Positions 4,485 to 31,409 of a DNA stretch of 64,000 bases are shown one piece after another; position 1 is the first letter of the stretch, and each line of letters starts with the position of its first letter. Both the position numbers and the translations under genes were made by a program. The stretch lies in the IMG/VR virus record IMGVR_UViG_2531839524_000004; one strand, written 5' to 3'. The notes under the pieces are model-generated. The model saw only the letters and a list, made by a program, of their open reading frames with translations, was not told the DNA's origin and searched no databases. This stretch comes from a virus (taxonomy: Duplodnaviria; Heunggongvirae; Uroviricota; Caudoviricetes).

Positions 4485-5225
4485 ATGAGCCAAATCTTTT
4501 TCGATACCATCGACAACGACCAGTACGACTTCATGACAGAGTGGAATACCGCTGTTATGGACAAGTGGGTCGCTGAAAACATTGGTTTGTCGCGCTGTAA
4601 AGACGAGGCTGAACTCTTCGAGACGAAGTGGTTTGATTACCGCGACATGCATCCTCTCATGGCCACCTGTCTTTTTACGGAGGCATACAAACGTCAGTAC
4701 TCAAATATCATGCTGACGCACGGTCGCGAACACTTTGAAACAGCTCCGTTCACCACCGGGTTAAAACGCCTGCCTTATCAGGAGTTGTCGACTGCCAATA
4801 AAACGTCGCTATGGAAAGCACGCCAGTTTGCGGATCGCTATTGCTGCTCATACGACTACTTTATCTCCACCGTTCTTTCCGCAGCTGCACGACGGCTGTG
4901 GGACAAGCTGCCGCGCCCACAGCATTTGTGGCAGCCAGAACTGATTGAGATATTTGAAGAGAAATTAGCCAGACGCGCAACAACCCGTCTGGATGACTCT
5001 CTGGTTAGCTTTAAGCATATGGGAGACATGCAGTTCAACCCGATTCAGGAAAGCTATTTTGAGTGGATTCTGGAGCGTTTGCGCACCATCCCTCGCAGCA
5101 AGCGCATACGCGCAATTTTCTCCGCTATCTGGCTAATGGAAATCGTTCCAGAGCGCCTTATTTCCGCCCACTTTCCAGAAGAACTGGAAGAAGCACGGCG
5201 GTTTATTGATCCCCTATCTAATTAA
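4485..5225 (+). CDS. hypothetical protein
   Basis: ORF with AGGTGA RBS 5 nt upstream of ATG 4485 (track ORF begins at in-frame GTG 4476). Confidence 0.5.
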   Translation: MSQIFFDTIDNDQYDFMTEWNTAVMDKWVAENIGLSRCKDEAELFETKWFDYRDMHPLMATCLFTEAYKRQYSNIMLTHGREHFETAPFTTGLKRLPYQELSTANKTSLWKARQFADRYCCSYDYFISTVLSAAARRLWDKLPRPQHLWQPELIEIFEEKLARRATTRLDDSLVSFKHMGDMQFNPIQESYFEWILERLRTIPRSKRIRAIFSAIWLMEIVPERLISAHFPEELEEARRFIDPLSN

Positions 5226-5268
5226 CTAATACTAGAAAACAATTTGTTTAAAAAACAAAGGAAAGCAC

Positions 5269-6609
5269 ATGACCGAACTTTGCCATACAGGACGCGGGCT
5301 GTCCGAAGAGTTTGATGAAGATTTCCAGAACAGACTGACGGCATATTTTTGTCGTGATCACGAGTTTCTTACTCGTGCGGGAGATCTGGTTGTGCCTAGC
5401 CAATTTGCCAATGCGGCCAATGCCATATTGGTTAATATGGTTTCGGGCTATTACCGTATGTACAAGAGCGCGCCCTCTTCATCTGCAATTCTGGATATGC
5501 TTAAGCGTGCGAAACGCGATAAGACTATCCGTGAGGAACTATTCGCCGATGTTGTTGCTGCGTTTAAGCGCATTCTTGCAGAAAAATTGTCCGATACCTC
5601 GTACATGGTTGACCAGGTATCAACCTTCGCAAAAAGTGTAGCGTTTGATGATGCTCTGATTAAGGCTGCTGAACTGAAAGAGAAAGGCGACTTTCACGGG
5701 GCGATGGCAATCATGGCCAAGGTTCAGCAGATTGGATCGAACGAAGCGACCGGAATCTATGACTACTACACCTCCGCAAGTGAGCGATTGAAAGCGCGTG
5801 AATATGAGGCTTCAGAGGAGTATGTACCAAACAGTATTACAACTGGACTCCCTCTTCTCGATAGGTTGCTGTACCAAAAAGGCTGGGCAAAGCGCGAAAT
5901 GGTGCTCTTCATGGGGTTCGCTAAATCCGGTAAATCGACCGCAATGGGTGAGTTTTCCATAAACGCAACACTTGCTGGCTACAATGTTCTGTATCTCTCG
6001 CTGGAGGTTCACACCACCATTTTATCCGACCGTTTTGATGCAAGATTGTCGGAGACGGAAATGTCCAAGTTGGTGGAACGGCGCGATGAAGTTCATCGCA
6101 AGTTGGCAGAGTTGGGAGCTACGAAGGGTATTGGTAGTTTGTGGGTTGTTGAGCGTCCGTCAGGAAGTATGTCACCGGCAGATCTGGACCGTATGCTTAA
6201 CAGCATGAAAGCCAACGGCATGGTGCCTGACATGGTTGTTGTCGACTACGCAGATTTGATGCGTGCCAGTTATGACCTTCGTGATGATCGCGCCAACATT
6301 CGTAGTATCTACACCGATTTACGTGCTCTTTATGACAAGCATAACGTTGCTGGGATCACGGCATCGCAGACAAACCGTGAAGGTGGCGCGTCAGAAGTTG
6401 CCACAATGATGCACGCTGCCGACAACATCGAAAAAGTACGTATTGCTGACCTGGTAATAACGATCAACAAAACCGAAGAAGAAGAAGCGAAAGGAGAGGC
6501 TCGTCTCTACTTTGCTGGTTCACGTAACCAGCAGGGAGGGATCAGCATTCGCGTTAAACAAAACCTCGAACAAATGCGCTTCATTGAGCGAATCTTAGAC
6601 GTTACCTAA
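5269..6609 (+). CDS. DnaB-like replicative DNA helicase
   Basis: 446 aa; C-terminal RecA-like domain with Walker A GFAKSGKST and DnaB-like architecture; conserved leader AAAGGAAAGCACATG. Confidence 0.8.
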   Translation: MTELCHTGRGLSEEFDEDFQNRLTAYFCRDHEFLTRAGDLVVPSQFANAANAILVNMVSGYYRMYKSAPSSSAILDMLKRAKRDKTIREELFADVVAAFKRILAEKLSDTSYMVDQVSTFAKSVAFDDALIKAAELKEKGDFHGAMAIMAKVQQIGSNEATGIYDYYTSASERLKAREYEASEEYVPNSITTGLPLLDRLLYQKGWAKREMVLFMGFAKSGKSTAMGEFSINATLAGYNVLYLSLEVHTTILSDRFDARLSETEMSKLVERRDEVHRKLAELGATKGIGSLWVVERPSGSMSPADLDRMLNSMKANGMVPDMVVVDYADLMRASYDLRDDRANIRSIYTDLRALYDKHNVAGITASQTNREGGASEVATMMHAADNIEKVRIADLVITINKTEEEEAKGEARLYFAGSRNQQGGISIRVKQNLEQMRFIERILDVT

Positions 6610-29166: not shown

Positions 29167-30240
29167 ATGGCAAAAGGAAAATCCGCACTGGCACTTGCTC
29201 TGAAAAAGAAAATCGGTAGCAACGACGAAATTCAGAAAGTAACTCATTGGATTGATACAGGCTTTCCACCGTTAAACAAAGCTATTTCTGGTCGTTACGA
29301 TGGCGGCTTCCCATGTGGTCGTATCGTCGAAGGATTCGGTCCTCCAAGTGCAGGGAAAACGTTCCTTGCAACAGCAGCGATGATCTCCGCTCAAAAACAA
29401 GATGGTCTGGCGGTATTCCTCGATCATGAAAACAGTTTTGACGTTGGCCTGGCTGTAGCCAATGGCCTGAACGCAGATGAGGATGACGGTCAGTGGGTAT
29501 ACAAGCAGCCTGATACCTTCGAAGACTCTGTAGAGTTGATCGGCACAATTCTTAAATTGGTACGTGATGAAGAGCTTATTCCTGAATCAGCACCTATCTG
29601 TATCGTGGCTGACTCACTTGCGTCTATGGTTCCGAACTCCAAAGCCGAGAAGTTCGAAAAGATGGCTGAAGGCACTGCCAAAGACAAAGATCAGCTAAAC
29701 ATGAACGACAATACGGCACTGGCTCGTGCGACAAGTGCGAACTTCCCTACTCTGGCTTTGTGGGCACGCAAATACAACGCCTGCATCATCTTCTTGAATC
29801 AGGTTCGCACAAAAATCGGTGTAATGTTTGGCGACCCTACTACGTCGCCAGGTGGAGATTCACCGAAGTTCTACGCTTCTGTACGTATCCGTCTTGGTGC
29901 ATCGGTGATGAAGGATGGTAAAGAGAAGATCGGCCAGGACGTAGGCGCAGAATGCATCAAAAACAAAGTTGCACCACCGTATGGCAAATGCACCTGGAAA
30001 TTCTACTTCGATCCTACTCGTGGCCTCGACGTTATCGAATCGCTCGTCGAGTACATGCTGGAAGAAGGATACCTGCCAAAGAACGCCAGCGGGCGAGTTG
30101 AAATTGGTGACAAGAAATACACCAAATCGCAGATCGTCGAGATGTATCGGGAGAAGCCACTGGCTGAAATCATTGCGGCTTTGCAGGCAATCGACGACCG
30201 AAGAGCAAAAGACAACCCCACCGAGTCAGTAGAAGAGTAA
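29167..30240 (+). CDS. RecA-family recombinase (UvsX/Sak4-like)
   Basis: GRIVEGFGPPSAGKTFLA Walker A context closely resembling the RecA core; 357 aa. Confidence 0.8.
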   Translation: MAKGKSALALALKKKIGSNDEIQKVTHWIDTGFPPLNKAISGRYDGGFPCGRIVEGFGPPSAGKTFLATAAMISAQKQDGLAVFLDHENSFDVGLAVANGLNADEDDGQWVYKQPDTFEDSVELIGTILKLVRDEELIPESAPICIVADSLASMVPNSKAEKFEKMAEGTAKDKDQLNMNDNTALARATSANFPTLALWARKYNACIIFLNQVRTKIGVMFGDPTTSPGGDSPKFYASVRIRLGASVMKDGKEKIGQDVGAECIKNKVAPPYGKCTWKFYFDPTRGLDVIESLVEYMLEEGYLPKNASGRVEIGDKKYTKSQIVEMYREKPLAEIIAALQAIDDRRAKDNPTESVEE

Positions 30241-30245
30241 ACACA

Positions 30246-30269
30246 AGGCGTCCACAGGACGCCTTTTTT
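30246..30269 (+). terminator. rho-independent terminator (GGCGTC/GACGCC stem family)
   Basis: AGGCGTCC-aca-GGACGCCT followed by TTTTTT. Confidence 0.75.
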
Positions 30270-30332
30270 ATCTCTTGAAAATATATAAGTACTTACTTAT
30301 TATTTTCGCATAACAACCACATAGGAAAACAC

Positions 30333-30533
30333 ATGATCAAAATCTATCTATTGGCAGTAGCCACAGGCCTTTCAGTGGCTCTCATCTACGGTTTACTGGT
30401 TCCGTCGCTGATTTCTACCAAGAGTGATTTAGCCGTCATGTTTGGAGTTATCGTTGGTTTTGGTGCTCCTGTAATCGGTCTTATTGCTGGTCGTAAGTTT
30501 ATCAACTCATTAATCAAAGCAAAGGGGAAATAA
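30333..30533 (+). CDS. small two-helix membrane protein
   Basis: 66 aa, two hydrophobic helices; immediately upstream of SPFH gene. Confidence 0.5.
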   Translation: MIKIYLLAVATGLSVALIYGLLVPSLISTKSDLAVMFGVIVGFGAPVIGLIAGRKFINSLIKAKGK

Positions 30534-30536
30534 GTA

Positions 30537-31367
30537 ATGAAGAAAGGTTTACTTGCAGTTGCTCTGGCGGCTATTTGCACAATGGGTCTTACTGGCTGTG
30601 ATCGCGTGGAGCCTGGATACGTTGGCATCAAAGTAAACAAATTAGGTGAAGACAAAGGGATCGGTGAAGTGGTTGGCGTTGGTCGCCAATGGACAGGTCT
30701 TAACACCGAACTTTACGTATTCCCGACCTTCAAACAAATGAAGACCTACGACGAACCGTTCACATTCCAGATGAGTGACGGTACTGCTATTGGTCACAAA
30801 ATTGGCGTTGCGTATCTGGTTAATCGTGACAAGGTAACGACGGTGTTCCAGACCTATCGCAAAGGCGTAGACGATATCACCGAATCAGATCTGCGTCAGA
30901 AAATTGCCGACTCTCTAAACCGTTTGGCCAGCCGTATGACCACTGACTCATTTATCGACGGTGGTAAGGCGCAATTGCTGGACAACGCACTGAAAGATAT
31001 TCAGAAAGAGATGTCTCCGGTTGGTATTGAGGTACTGAGCCTGTCATGGGTTGGAAAGCCTGATTACCCAAAAACCGTCATTGAATCTATCAACGCCAAA
31101 GTAACGGCTAACCAGCGTACTCTGCAACGTCAGCAGGAAGTTGAACAGCGTAAAGCTGAGGCGAATATGCTACGTGAACAGGCTAATGGTGAAGCTGATG
31201 CTATCCGTGCTCGTGCGCAAGCAGAAGCCGACGCCATTCGTCTGCGCGGTGAAGCTCTGCGTCAAAACCCGAACGTTATGGAGCTGGAAGCCATCAATAA
31301 ATGGAATGGCCAGTTACCGCAGTACATGACTCAAGGGGCTAACACTCCTTTCATTACAGTGAAATAA
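30537..31367 (+). CDS. SPFH/band-7 domain lipoprotein
   Basis: Signal peptide with lipobox LTGC; band-7 core and C-terminal Ala/Glu/Arg-rich coiled coil. Confidence 0.7.
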   Translation: MKKGLLAVALAAICTMGLTGCDRVEPGYVGIKVNKLGEDKGIGEVVGVGRQWTGLNTELYVFPTFKQMKTYDEPFTFQMSDGTAIGHKIGVAYLVNRDKVTTVFQTYRKGVDDITESDLRQKIADSLNRLASRMTTDSFIDGGKAQLLDNALKDIQKEMSPVGIEVLSLSWVGKPDYPKTVIESINAKVTANQRTLQRQQEVEQRKAEANMLREQANGEADAIRARAQAEADAIRLRGEALRQNPNVMELEAINKWNGQLPQYMTQGANTPFITVK

Positions 31368-31385: not shown

Positions 31386-31409
31386 GGCGTCCAGTTGGAC
31401 GCCGTTTTA
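31386..31409 (+). terminator. rho-independent terminator (GGCGTC/GACGCC stem family)
   Basis: GGCGTCCA-gt-TGGACGCC followed by GTTTTA. Confidence 0.7.

Follow-up and report, generated by a model that had tools for sequence, protein, structure and literature searches.

A conserved phage gene pair encodes a predicted SPFH-domain lipoprotein and a small two-helix membrane partner

In the 64,000-nucleotide stretch of viral DNA analysed here (the window), the gene for an SPFH/band-7 lipoprotein (ORF B) is paired with a gene for a small membrane protein (ORF A). We show that this phage SPFH lipoprotein is one half of what appears to be an ancient module, encoded as two genes or as a single fused gene, whose other half is a two-helix partner that had not been curated. 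By a modest balance of probability, we propose that ORF A and ORF B are two subunits of one inner-membrane, periplasm-facing SPFH complex that acts early in infection. It is now established that SPFH proteins build closed cages on membranes, and genome papers have called the reason that phages carry them unclear; the literature that we found on the function of phage SPFH proteins consists of annotations and speculation only. With 66 and 276 residues, the pair offers a small system in which to study the anchoring of an SPFH cage and the nature of what such a cage captures, and the carriers of the module include tractable phage models.

Results

Organization of the cassette

Both open reading frames were found where the original prediction had placed them, ORF A directly 5' of ORF B with a stop-to-start gap of 3 nt (letters TAAGTAATG); the sequence GGGGA lies 8 nt upstream of the ORF B start, within the 3' end of ORF A (Table 1). 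On the left, the cassette is bounded by the hairpin terminator of a RecA/UvsX-like gene (29167-30240) and on the right by a second hairpin; the two share one stem, which is found nowhere else in the window. With a consensus promoter at 30275-30303 and the two flanking hairpins, the pair has the promoter and terminator of its own by which morons are defined, and the proposal that it forms a separate two-gene unit is upheld by these elements and by the pair of the closely related phage-plasmid Cyrano, which in published RNA-seq varies jointly and independently of its flanking genes.

The window belongs to an SSU5-like phage-plasmid, and Escherichia phage CMS-2020a and many E. coli plasmids of ~110 kb carry the two genes at 99-100% identity. 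Synteny with SSU5-like relatives stops just past the right terminator, where they align to query position ~1557 (window ~31456), and GC falls downstream of this terminator. The GC content of the cassette resembles that of the upstream genes, and a foreign-composition island was rejected. In PADLOC-DB v2, neither ORF A nor ORF B matches a defence-system model at E<=0.1, and no anti-defence domain lies near the pair within the window.

Table 1. Features of the cassette, in window coordinates
Feature	Position	Strand	Basis and details
Hairpin terminator of the upstream RecA/UvsX-like gene, left cassette boundary	30245-30265	+	Terminator scan; stem GGCGTCC/GGACGCC then T-run
Sigma70-like promoter	30275-30303	+	Consensus scan, 10/12; -35 TTGAAA 30275-30280, 17-nt spacer, -10 TATTAT 30298-30303
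Perfect 16-bp palindrome ATAAGTA-N2-TACTTAT, putative operator	30285-30300	.	Spans the spacer and first 3 nt of the -10
ORF A, 66-aa two-TM inner-membrane protein, proposed partner subunit	30333-30533	+	ATG start; AGGA 6 nt upstream
ORF B, 276-aa prohibitin/HflKC-like SPFH lipoprotein	30537-31367	+	Pfam, PHROG, AF2, Foldseek, PDB-sequence profile
ORF B predicted lipoprotein signal peptide, lipobox L18-T-G-C21	30537-30599	+	Sequence; Cys21 codon 30597-30599
SPFH/Band-7 domain, ORF B residues 23-209	30603-31163	+	Pfam PF01145; AF2 pLDDT 91; Foldseek
ORF B Ala/Glu-rich helix and C-terminal motif, presumed oligomerisation wall/cap	31071-31319	+	AF2; conservation
Hairpin terminator, right cassette boundary	31386-31403	+	Terminator scan

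ORF B and the SPFH fold

A Pfam profile search, the check that the original prediction had named, found the Band_7 domain PF01145 in ORF B (E 2.6e-30; 106.2 bits, with the cutoff at 23.6; positions 2-176 of the 176 in the profile), which together with the lipobox bears out the description of this protein as an SPFH/band-7 lipoprotein; a weak Flotillin match covers residues 208-266. ORF B also matches PHROG 200, "lipoprotein", over its full length (phrog_200, E 3e-108). The AF2 monomer model (pLDDT 91.2) consists of strands and helices from residue 21 to 176, a helix of about 65 residues (179-243) and a further helix (245-255). Beyond these lies the motif W256-x-G258-x-x-P261, in which W256 is invariant and G258 and P261 are nearly invariant among 109 sequences, a pattern of conservation that would be compatible with cage assembly. 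Foldseek searches with the full-length model returned HflK/HflC (7vhq, E 7e-14), prohibitin (8rrh), erlin, stomatin, flotillin and QmcA, with a probability of 1.00 for HflK/C, prohibitin, erlin, stomatin and flotillin; the solved homologues share only 13-18% identity with ORF B. When the family profile was compared with PDB sequences, prohibitin-1 was matched at 5.5e-10, HflK/HflC at 6e-7 to 2e-6 and QmcA at 3e-5. ORF B is thus confidently predicted to be a cage-type SPFH protomer of complete architecture, whose nearest solved relatives are the prohibitins and HflK/HflC.

Orthology with HflK or HflC was rejected, as ORF B scores far under the equivalog cutoffs: 30.2 bits against 134.4 for HflC (TIGR01932) and 18.7 bits against 159.4 for HflK (TIGR01933), each over residues of about 115-240. 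Binding of FtsH therefore cannot be assumed. The old label "serine protease", given to phiP27 L05, P88 and others, was also discarded, since the matches are to Band_7 and weakly to Flotillin only, with no protease domain.

Lipoprotein signal and location of ORF B

The N-terminus of ORF B (MKKGLLAVALAAICTMGLTG followed by CD) begins with MKK and continues through a hydrophobic core to a canonical lipobox, in which Cys21 is followed by Asp22, and on this predicted signal ORF B is a Sec/SPase II-type lipoprotein. The lipobox was read from the sequence against the pattern [LVI][ASTVI][GAS]C; its strict form is present in 87 of 117 full-length family representatives, and CDRVEPG is invariant among the enterobacterial phage homologues (window, Cyrano, phiP27 and P88). 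Under the +2 rule of E. coli, Ser, Thr or Gly would send a lipoprotein to the outer membrane; ORF B has Asp at this position, the mark of inner-membrane retention in Enterobacteriaceae. Given this residue, and because the fused forms of the module described below are three-TM inner-membrane proteins, we infer that ORF B is held in the inner membrane and that its SPFH domain therefore faces the periplasm, like that of HflK/C. Two observations count against this location: many ORF B family members carry Ser, Thr or Gly at +2, and a possibly related Pasteurella prophage protein has been seen in outer-membrane vesicles (PMC9872710).

ORF A and its family

As had been predicted, ORF A is a two-helix membrane protein of 66 residues, with TM1 at about 5-27, a periplasmic turn (S28-D32) after P24-x-L-I-S, TM2 at about 33-53 and a basic tail. 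Its net charge is +1 at the N-terminus, about 0 in the loop and +5 in the C-terminal tail, and the homologues have charges of +1.25, -0.33 and +2.6 in the same segments (positive-inside); this distribution points to an N-in/C-in topology with the tail in the cytoplasm. ORF A matches PHROG 1130, "membrane protein" (phrog_1130, E 2.1e-25), over residues 1-65 of the 66-position profile. It has no Pfam match at E<=0.1, and its family profile retrieved only compositional TM noise, such as PsbI, from PDB sequences. The suggestion that the partner is NfeD-like did not hold: neither ORF A nor any of 12 diverse homologues matched NfeD, the homologues belonging to no Pfam family and none reaching NfeD at E<=1, and ORF A is too small, as its 13-residue tail cannot hold an OB fold.

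A profile was needed to find the family, a BLAST-level search of phage genomes having given six close relatives only. The ORF A profile retrieves 513 protein clusters of 63-90 residues; the family alignment is gapless and conserves the periplasmic turn as P-x-L-[IV]-S-x-x-[SD], apparently the one strongly conserved part of the protein. In sequence terms, ORF A founds a previously uncurated family of two-TM proteins of about 65-80 residues. Compared with Cyrano, it carries 18 nonsynonymous and 16 synonymous changes, against 0 and 9 in ORF B; the nonsynonymous changes are mainly hydrophobic swaps inside the TM helices, and substitutions are biased to the third codon position. Conservation, this codon-position bias, the profile matches and the fusions rule out ORF A as a chance open reading frame, and equally rule out the antisense frame 30386-30706 (106 aa) as the real gene in its place. 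Several records (phiP27, a P1 variant and a crAss-like phage) leave the small partner gene without annotation.

Conservation, spread and natural fusions of the pair

An ORF A homologue lies immediately 5' of the SPFH gene in all 80 of the 80 related IMG/VR viral loci, at an offset of +3, -4 or -20 nt. Among 16 distant phage lineages the partner is present in 13, including N4-like, rV5-like, LUZ24-like, jumbo and crAss phages, and undetectable in three (phiEa104, CcrSwift and L112). Across 80 genome loci of a distant clade, 60 carry it, non-phage Dyella chromosomes among them: it lies upstream in 52 and in frame in 8. One further locus has a match elsewhere, and the other 19 have no detectable partner; together with the three lineages, these 19 loci suggest that the SPFH protein may work alone in some lineages. 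In the reciprocal check, the next gene encodes Band_7 at nine of nine places where partner proteins are encoded. The ORF A family is co-inherited with the SPFH clade of ORF B, and the two genes are usually translationally coupled.

In about 18 natural fusions the partner is joined to the N-terminus of the SPFH protein, and the ORF A HMM matches 11 fused representatives (reversed controls, zero). The order of segments is TM1, TM2, basic linker, TM3/lipobox and SPFH, a topology with the SPFH domain on the periplasmic side; for fusion P0157, AF2 models three helices, at 2-27, 32-53 and 59-73, with pLDDT 83-92. In each of the 18 N-terminal fusions, a small residue and Cys are retained directly before the SPFH domain.

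At least 377 records of cultured phages, virulent and temperate and from many hosts (N4-like, LUZ24-like, rV5-like, P2-like, lambdoid, SSU5-like and crAss-like), contain the module. So do about 7% of the complete genomes of E. coli and, in ordinary non-phage neighbourhoods, Dyella chromosomes; it is also common in environmental phages and bacteria without an animal host. Its phage contexts are mostly replication or early blocks, in temperate phages early lytic operons. Because the two proteins recur together, sometimes fused, in unrelated phages and bacteria, the comparisons argue that the pairing is real and ancient, spanning hundreds of unrelated phages and some bacteria. Synteny across very distant carriers and the natural fusions make the partnership far stronger than originally claimed.

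Promoter and expression

The sigma70-like promoter is invariant across five SSU5-like relatives, while its flanks vary. The palindrome has ten copies in the window at <=2 mismatches, all intergenic, against 0.16 expected, and because of its position in the promoter we regard it as a putative operator of a phage regulator. RNA-seq of Cyrano places its pair, CYRAN_56/57, at background in LB (PMC9928086 S1 Table), which lends no support to a constitutive moron or lysogenic-conversion gene. At 6 h in macrophages the two genes together reach log2 values of about 7.3-7.7, about 10-40-fold up relative to LB, and the flanking RecA, exonuclease and CYRAN_58 genes stand at about 2.4-4.2 log2; other Cyrano genes, including capsid and tail, are likewise up, and CYRAN_56/57 are missing from the authors' list of 13 morons (PMC9928086). 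The operator-bearing DNA-metabolism units are not co-induced with the pair in macrophages (PMC9928086), so that shared regulation is only a possibility.

Discussion

The conservation of the pair and the fold of ORF B suggest a model for its activity. The two genes would be transcribed from their own operator-bearing promoter, one of about ten units marked in this way that mostly hold DNA-metabolism genes, and a promoter type shared with these units would point to a function in the early or derepression phase rather than to a constitutive lysogenic one. The turn P-x-L-[IV]-S-x-x-[SD] of ORF A would contact the membrane-proximal base of ORF B, and ORF A would thereby provide, in trans, the transmembrane ring that is part of the SPFH chains themselves in HflK/C and the prohibitins (in cis). 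By oligomerising, the pair would build a closed SPFH cage and so set apart an area of inner membrane; for both the cage and the contact of ORF A with ORF B, we extrapolate from solved homologues that are only 13-18% identical. Such a cage might enclose, or compete for, a conserved inner-membrane client, and could in this way tune membrane-protein quality control or stabilise the inner membrane in infection or stress. Homology with HflK/C and prohibitin makes the FtsH protease our leading candidate for the client, although this is a guess. That virulent as well as temperate phages with many hosts carry the module, and that it also sits in a non-phage context in Dyella chromosomes, counts for a general membrane role. 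Were that role routine membrane maintenance, the annotation would still stand corrected: the serine-protease label of the SPFH protein is wrong, NfeD is not the identity of its partner, and several GenBank records lack the partner gene.

A bolder version of this model, which we consider unlikely, is that the minimal periplasmic SPFH cage serves an early takeover of the inner membrane, shielding it against abortive-infection effectors or superinfecting genomes, or capturing FtsH. If true, this would represent a new mechanistic class of phage host takeover or counter-defence, in which a lipid-anchored scaffold is combined with a fast-evolving transmembrane adaptor. As a corollary, the 18 N-terminal fusions, with their small residue and Cys ahead of the SPFH domain, may be polyproteins that signal peptidase II cuts at the internal lipobox, freeing the subunits 1:1.

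Other explanations place the complex in conflicts between phages or with the host. We give a small chance to superinfection exclusion, in which the periplasm-facing complex would block the entry of secondary phage DNA at the inner membrane, for instance by sequestering an inner-membrane component of genome translocation, and would resemble the early-expressed T4 Imm/Sp or prophage Sie proteins. T4 Imm resembles ORF A in size and topology, and an envelope location and a position in the early region of virulent and temperate phages alike fit this explanation. The fast evolution of the partner (18 nonsynonymous changes to 16, with 0 to 9 in ORF B) is compatible with an arms race, but the changes are mostly hydrophobic swaps in the TM helices. 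Searches of PADLOC, Pfam and the PDB revealed no similarity to known families of exclusion or defence proteins, the LB-grown Cyrano lysogen keeps its pair silent, a cage would cover small membrane patches only, and the hosts are too diverse for a single receptor. Strictly virulent phages carry the module and so do non-phage chromosomes, including the ordinary Dyella neighbourhoods, which argues against a purely lysogen-protective exclusion.

Smaller still is the chance of a counter-defence role, in which the scaffold would guard the inner membrane or its proton-motive force against membrane-disrupting abortive-infection effectors or premature depolarisation. In three phage contexts that are unrelated to one another, known anti-defence families lie within about two genes of the cassette (Acb2/Tad1-hairpin in L004, Tad2-like in Salmonella and E. 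coli elements, and Gad2 in large freshwater phages), and other SPFH proteins act together with membrane-stress systems, namely B. subtilis YdjI with PspA (PMC8581546) and S. aureus FloA (PMC11222466). This is guilt by association, however, in early accessory regions crowded with many kinds of gene, and the pair in the window has no anti-defence domain beside it. Effectors that attack membranes mostly do so within the bilayer or from its cytoplasmic face, whereas the ORF B domain is predicted to be periplasmic, and copies exist in non-phage chromosomes.

The rise of CYRAN_56/57 in macrophages at 6 h raises a further explanation, which we hold to be very unlikely: a lysogenic-conversion or virulence factor, the stress-made lipoprotein acting on the animal host as a TLR2 agonist or vesicle cargo, or aiding survival in macrophages. 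The HflK/C-like protein PM0222 of a Pasteurella multocida prophage is found in OMVs and signals through TLR1/2, and its deletion attenuates virulence (PMC9872710), yet PM0222 is a possible family member only. The Cyrano capsid, tail and other genes are also up in macrophages, strictly virulent phages commonly have the module, as do environmental phages and bacteria without an animal host, and temperate phages carry it inside early lytic operons.

Least probable of all is a role in lysis timing, with ORF A as a class II holin- or antiholin-like protein whose triggering the SPFH lipoprotein regulates: class II holins are typically of similar size, with two TM helices, an N-in/C-in topology and a basic tail, and one crAss-like phage has a peptidoglycan hydrolase two genes away from the cassette, but ORF A has no holin family match in PHROGs or Pfam and no adjoining endolysin, its other contexts are replication or early blocks rather than lysis cassettes, Cyrano has a separate holin-endolysin-spanin cassette elsewhere, and covalent partner-SPFH fusions and non-phage chromosomal copies would ill suit a lethal pore-former.

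A comparison of the proposed two-subunit, periplasm-facing complex with known systems starts from its direct homologues, which are annotated but unstudied and present no structural difference: those of SSU5, phiP27 (L05), P88, Erwinia phage S6 (gp044/gp045) and phi1026b (gp48/gp49). PM0222 is a prophage-borne HflK/C-like envelope protein of 25-35 kDa with a measured phenotype (PMC9872710); it differs in being reported in OMVs, where ORF B is placed by prediction in the inner membrane. HflK/HflC of E. coli, which form an SPFH cage around FtsH (PDB 7vhp/7vhq, 7wi3 and 9cz2), have the same predicted protomer architecture as ORF B, its likely periplasmic orientation on the inner membrane and a two-component make-up, and their sequences are weakly similar to it across the SPFH2 and helix region. 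At about 16-18% identity to ORF B, however, they are two SPFH paralogues rather than one SPFH subunit, their anchor is a TM helix rather than an N-terminal lipid, and their second component is an SPFH protein rather than a 66-residue two-TM protein.

The mitochondrial inner-membrane prohibitins PHB1/PHB2 (PDB 8rrh and 9o9z) provide the best sequence-profile match to ORF B among solved structures, that with prohibitin-1 covering nearly the whole length (E 5.5e-10); they are similar in size (272-299 residues), and their domain faces the compartment equivalent to the periplasm. They differ in being eukaryotic and in forming a hetero-oligomer from two SPFH paralogues, which are anchored by TM segments at the N-terminus and have neither a lipid anchor nor a small partner. 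The prohibitin cage partners an FtsH-family protease.

The domain of QmcA faces the cytoplasm, whereas that of ORF B would be periplasmic and lipid-anchored. Even so, the SPFH-NfeD operons to which QmcA belongs (QmcA-YbbJ, PDB 8z5g; YqiK-YqiJ; PH1511-PH1510) share with our cassette the conserved pairing, sometimes as a fusion, of an SPFH protein with a small membrane protein, an operon logic set out by Hinderhofer et al. 2009 (PMC2636767). ORF A differs from the partner in these operons in its length of only 66 residues, in its position upstream of the SPFH gene and in being without the NfeD OB-fold domain. By analogy between the two kinds of pair, the TM helices of the partner plausibly lie inside or under the cage.

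Predicted structure and topology of the two proteins

We demonstrate that ORF B, the 3' gene of the cassette, belongs to the SPFH superfamily and is a lipoprotein of the prohibitin/HflKC type. Both ORFs proposed in the original prediction lie where it placed them, and a profile search bears out its SPFH assignment, with a Pfam Band_7 match in ORF B (E 2.6e-30) alongside phrog_200 'lipoprotein' (E 3e-108). The predicted lipobox is also present, in an N-terminal lipoprotein signal peptide made up of MKK, a hydrophobic core and LTG followed by C21; the residue at +2 is Asp, the enterobacterial inner-membrane retention residue. The motif CDRVEPG is unchanged in ORF B homologues of four phage types. 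In the AlphaFold2 model (109-sequence alignment, pLDDT 91.2) an N-terminal helix leads into the SPFH core (residues 21-176), which is followed by one long helix over 179-243, a shorter one over 245-255 and then a flexible tail. In Foldseek the whole protomer aligns at 13-18% identity to cage-forming SPFH proteins, namely HflK/HflC (7vhq, E 7e-14), prohibitin, erlin, stomatin, flotillin and QmcA, while the family profile places prohibitin-1 first among PDB sequences (5.5e-10, near full length), HflK/HflC next and QmcA third. Among the 109 sequences W256 never varies, and G258 and P261 hardly do; these positions correspond to where solved SPFH homologues close the cage. The HflK/HflC models score ORF B weakly, far under their cutoffs, which rules it out as an equivalog of either protein.

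ORF A, the small protein encoded directly upstream, has two hydrophobic segments, in agreement with the two transmembrane helices first ascribed to it. The mean charge of its homologues is +1.25 at the N-terminus, -0.33 in the loop and +2.6 in the C-terminal tail, and the conservation of this distribution indicates a predicted N-in/C-in topology. ORF A matches phrog_1130 'membrane protein'; searches of Pfam, the NfeD model and solved structures (PDB) gave no match, and the NfeD identity for which a check had been suggested is thereby ruled out. Homologues of very different sources align without gaps and follow the pattern [KR]-x-Y, TM1, P-x-[LM]-[IV]-S-x-x-[SD], TM2, basic tail, in which the short periplasmic turn is best conserved. 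A profile search returned 513 clusters, every one 63-90 aa and unnamed. Between the window and the related phage-plasmid Cyrano, ORF B has 9 synonymous and 0 nonsynonymous codon differences (about 99% nucleotide identity) and ORF A has 16 and 18 (about 80%), reflecting either a recombination boundary at the junction of the two genes or a partner that evolves much faster.

Co-inheritance and natural fusion

A co-inherited, sometimes fused, two-TM partner accompanies the SPFH lipoprotein. Both the lambdoid Stx phage phiP27 and the P2-like phage P88 encode the pair; their SPFH proteins share 77-79% identity with ORF B, their partners just 27-37% with ORF A. At all 80 IMG/VR loci with close ORF B relatives an ORF A homologue lies directly upstream, spaced by +3 nt or with a 4- or 20-nt overlap. 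In a tblastn search, 377 phage records proved to carry a relative of ORF B; they come from temperate and strictly virulent groups, with hosts including Pseudomonas, Klebsiella, Erwinia, Escherichia, Burkholderia, Caulobacter, Salmonella and Prevotella/Bacteroides. The partner was detected in 13 of 16 distant lineages inspected (not in phiEa104, CcrSwift or locus L112), mostly adjacent to the SPFH gene, with one small ORF between the two in KpS8 and two in U47. Starting reciprocally from three partner clusters, a Band_7 gene came next in 9/9 places. Several partner ORFs, though clearly present, are unannotated in GenBank (Table).

For a distant SPFH clade, purpose-built partner profiles, whose specificity is supported by a reversed-sequence control and by hit position, located the partner upstream at 52 of 80 genome loci, in the same frame at 8 and elsewhere at 1, leaving 19 undetected; 60/61 hits adjoin or are fused to the SPFH gene. 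At one of these 80 loci, in a complete Dyella halodurans chromosome, the module stands among genes for a BlaR1-type M56 peptidase, hemerythrin and ribonucleotide reductase, and is thus not exclusive to phages; it recurs in many Dyella/Rhodanobacteraceae species.

At E<1e-30, HMMER returned 195 representatives of the family from the 50%-identity clusters, and about 18 of the best 150 are 320-390 aa long, the extra N-terminus being an ORF A-like two-TM hairpin (P0157, P0167, P0168, P0176, P0178, P0184, P0186, P0198, P0200, P0201, P0203, P0218, P0223, P0224, P0233, P0241, P0257 and P0273). An HMM of ORF A relatives matches 11 of the fusions (E 5e-9 to 3e-4) and gave zero matches on reversed sequences. 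The fusions run from hairpin through a basic linker and a third hydrophobic helix, with a lipobox-like Cys at its end, to the SPFH domain, with three helices at pLDDT 83-92 in the AlphaFold2 model of one. A C-in partner joined to an N-in signal peptide predicts exactly this order, which places the SPFH domain outside the cytoplasm.

A small residue and Cys stand directly ahead of the SPFH domain in 18/18 fusions, whereas the Cys is absent in 15 unfused family members; judged from this internal lipobox, the fusions are possibly polyproteins cut by signal peptidase II. A further SPFH lipoprotein, P0162 (344 aa), carries a partner-like segment (MKKEI...GLVVPTLISSSATF...) read through in its C-terminal 70 residues, which suggests reversed gene order in some lineages or a missed stop codon.

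Genomic setting and expression

Features of the cassette and of compared loci (window positions unless a locus is named)
Feature	Position	Strand	Details
RecA/UvsX-like gene	29167-30240		357 aa, without intein
Cyrano orthologue	L001 2002-4341		779 aa, intein with LAGLIDADG homing endonuclease
Hairpin terminator of RecA/UvsX-like gene	30245-30265		upstream boundary; sequence-based prediction
Sigma70-like promoter, TTGAAA-17-TATTAT	30275-30303		downstream of that hairpin; consensus match
Palindrome ATAAGTA-N2-TACTTAT	30285-30300		perfect; covers promoter spacer and start of -10
Palindrome copies (starts)	12544, 20122, 26761, 30285, 37829, 42513, 47229, 52064, 52727, 59247		all intergenic
ORF A	30333-30533	+	66 aa
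ORF B	30537-31367	+	276 aa
Second hairpin terminator	31386-31403		3' of ORF B; sequence-based prediction
Variable accessory region	31463 onward		first gene DUF1281_C (Api92-like)
ORF resembling DUF7238 part of P0018	33547-33972
Unannotated partner, phiP27	L002 2756-2944
Unannotated partner, P1 variant MH445381	L125 about 2317-2520
Unannotated partner, crAss-like PhiCrAssBcn1	L118 1281-1502
Dyella halodurans module	L142 3697-4870
Acb2/Tad1-hairpin	L004 218-520		anti-defence neighbour
Tad2-like	L128/L130/L134-L136 about 4730-5305		anti-defence neighbour
Gad2	L131/L132 5517-6227		anti-defence neighbour

The cassette region shares 99.8% identity with Escherichia phage CMS-2020a and 80-96% with PhiR41_1, Cyrano and Salmonella phage SSU5, which identifies the window as an SSU5-like phage-plasmid. 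Upstream of the pair are genes for a gp32-like SSB, a 5'-3' exonuclease and the RecA-like recombinase; downstream come a DUF1281_C gene, unknown ORFs, a DUF7238 gene and the gene for a Rep3-type initiator. The module is found in 373 of 5426 complete E. coli genomes, at 195 plasmid and 204 chromosomal places; the full-length, high-identity matches listed come from plasmid records of about 106-156 kb, and the chromosomal copies among the matches listed are about 75% identical, with both of the two inspected lying in prophages. Homology with SSU5-like relatives ends right past the second terminator, beyond which GC is 0.38-0.44 against about 0.48. One assembly encodes P0018 (303 aa), in which ORF B residues 1 to about 226 are joined to a DUF7238 domain, probably a deletion variant lacking about 2.3 kb.

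An AGGA lies 6 nt ahead of the ORF A ATG. The GGGGA of ORF B falls within the 3' end of ORF A, and stop and start are just 3 nt apart (TAAGTAATG), so that the genes are arranged for coupled translation. Predicted hairpins bracket the pair as the original prediction described, and the predicted promoter region is identical in five relatives despite differing flanks. Both hairpins (30247-30263 and 31386-31403) have identical 7-bp stems (GGCGTCC/GGACGCC) and similar T-rich tails; as these are the sole two copies in 64 kb, they suggest that the cassette arose by insertion or duplication at a terminator. The 16-bp promoter palindrome occurs 10 times in the window at <=2 mismatches (0.16 expected), mostly preceding plus-strand DNA-metabolism units, and we infer from its placement that it is a putative operator/promoter element of a phage-plasmid regulon.

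The expression data are published RNA-seq of Cyrano in its host strain LF82; the Cyrano genes CYRAN_56/57 (L001 4435-5469) are 80% (ORF A) and 99% (ORF B) nucleotide-identical to those of the window. The two are at background in LB overnight culture and rise jointly, reaching log2 about 7.3-7.7 in macrophages at 6 h (PMC9928086), a 10-40-fold increase approximately (PMC9928086 S1 Table). The flanks show no such rise (RecA about 4, exonuclease about 2.4-2.9, CYRAN_58 about 4), nor did the palindrome-bearing DNA-metabolism units rise alongside; CYRAN_44, 46 and 60-62 are also up, as are some of the capsid and tail genes (PMC9928086). These data support one autonomous unit under joint regulation, in line with the separate two-gene unit first proposed, and indicate that the lysogen does not express it constitutively. 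The pair is not in the authors' moron list (PMC9928086).

Possible functions and comparison with known systems

The cassette forms part of early lytic operons in phiP27-type and P2-type prophages, and in virulent phages it sits among early or replication genes, not lysis genes. Superinfection exclusion by the pair fits the predicted envelope location and the early timing, although homology lends it no support. A counter-defence function is suggested only by genes of known anti-defence families (Acb2/Tad1-hairpin, Tad2-like and Gad2) found 1-2 genes from the cassette in three unrelated phage contexts, but none of these lies near the pair in the window. Virulence or lysogenic conversion is a rival reading that draws on the macrophage induction of CYRAN_56/57 (PMC9928086) and on PM0222 of Pasteurella, possibly related to ORF B (PMC9872710). 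Lysis control would fit the holin-like shape of ORF A but agrees with neither its genomic contexts nor the fusions.

Database labels already call ORF B 'lipoprotein' or 'SPFH domain protein' and ORF A 'membrane protein' or 'hypothetical'. Genome papers call the role of phage SPFH genes unclear or speculate on it (PMC13239085, PMC10269572, PMC1524935), and our literature search for the function of the phage SPFH and partner pair found no study. What is new here is a lipid-anchored SPFH scaffold with a distinct, uncurated TM partner family, widespread in phages.

Our data suggest a model in which ORF B would sit at the inner membrane with its SPFH domain in the periplasm, and the conserved periplasmic turn of the partner would touch the base of that domain. 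In HflK/C and prohibitins the TM ring is present in cis; here the partner may supply it in trans, and the complex would oligomerise into a cage. We lean slightly towards this structural model of the pair. That the module is also present in virulent phages and in non-phage chromosomes speaks for a general role in organising or stabilising the membrane rather than for one specific to lysogens. The cage is hypothesised to enclose a conserved inner-membrane client. FtsH is the obvious candidate: the nearest solved relatives, HflK/C and prohibitin, share this topology, and each encloses a protease of the FtsH family. FtsH specifically is a conceivable but rather unlikely client.
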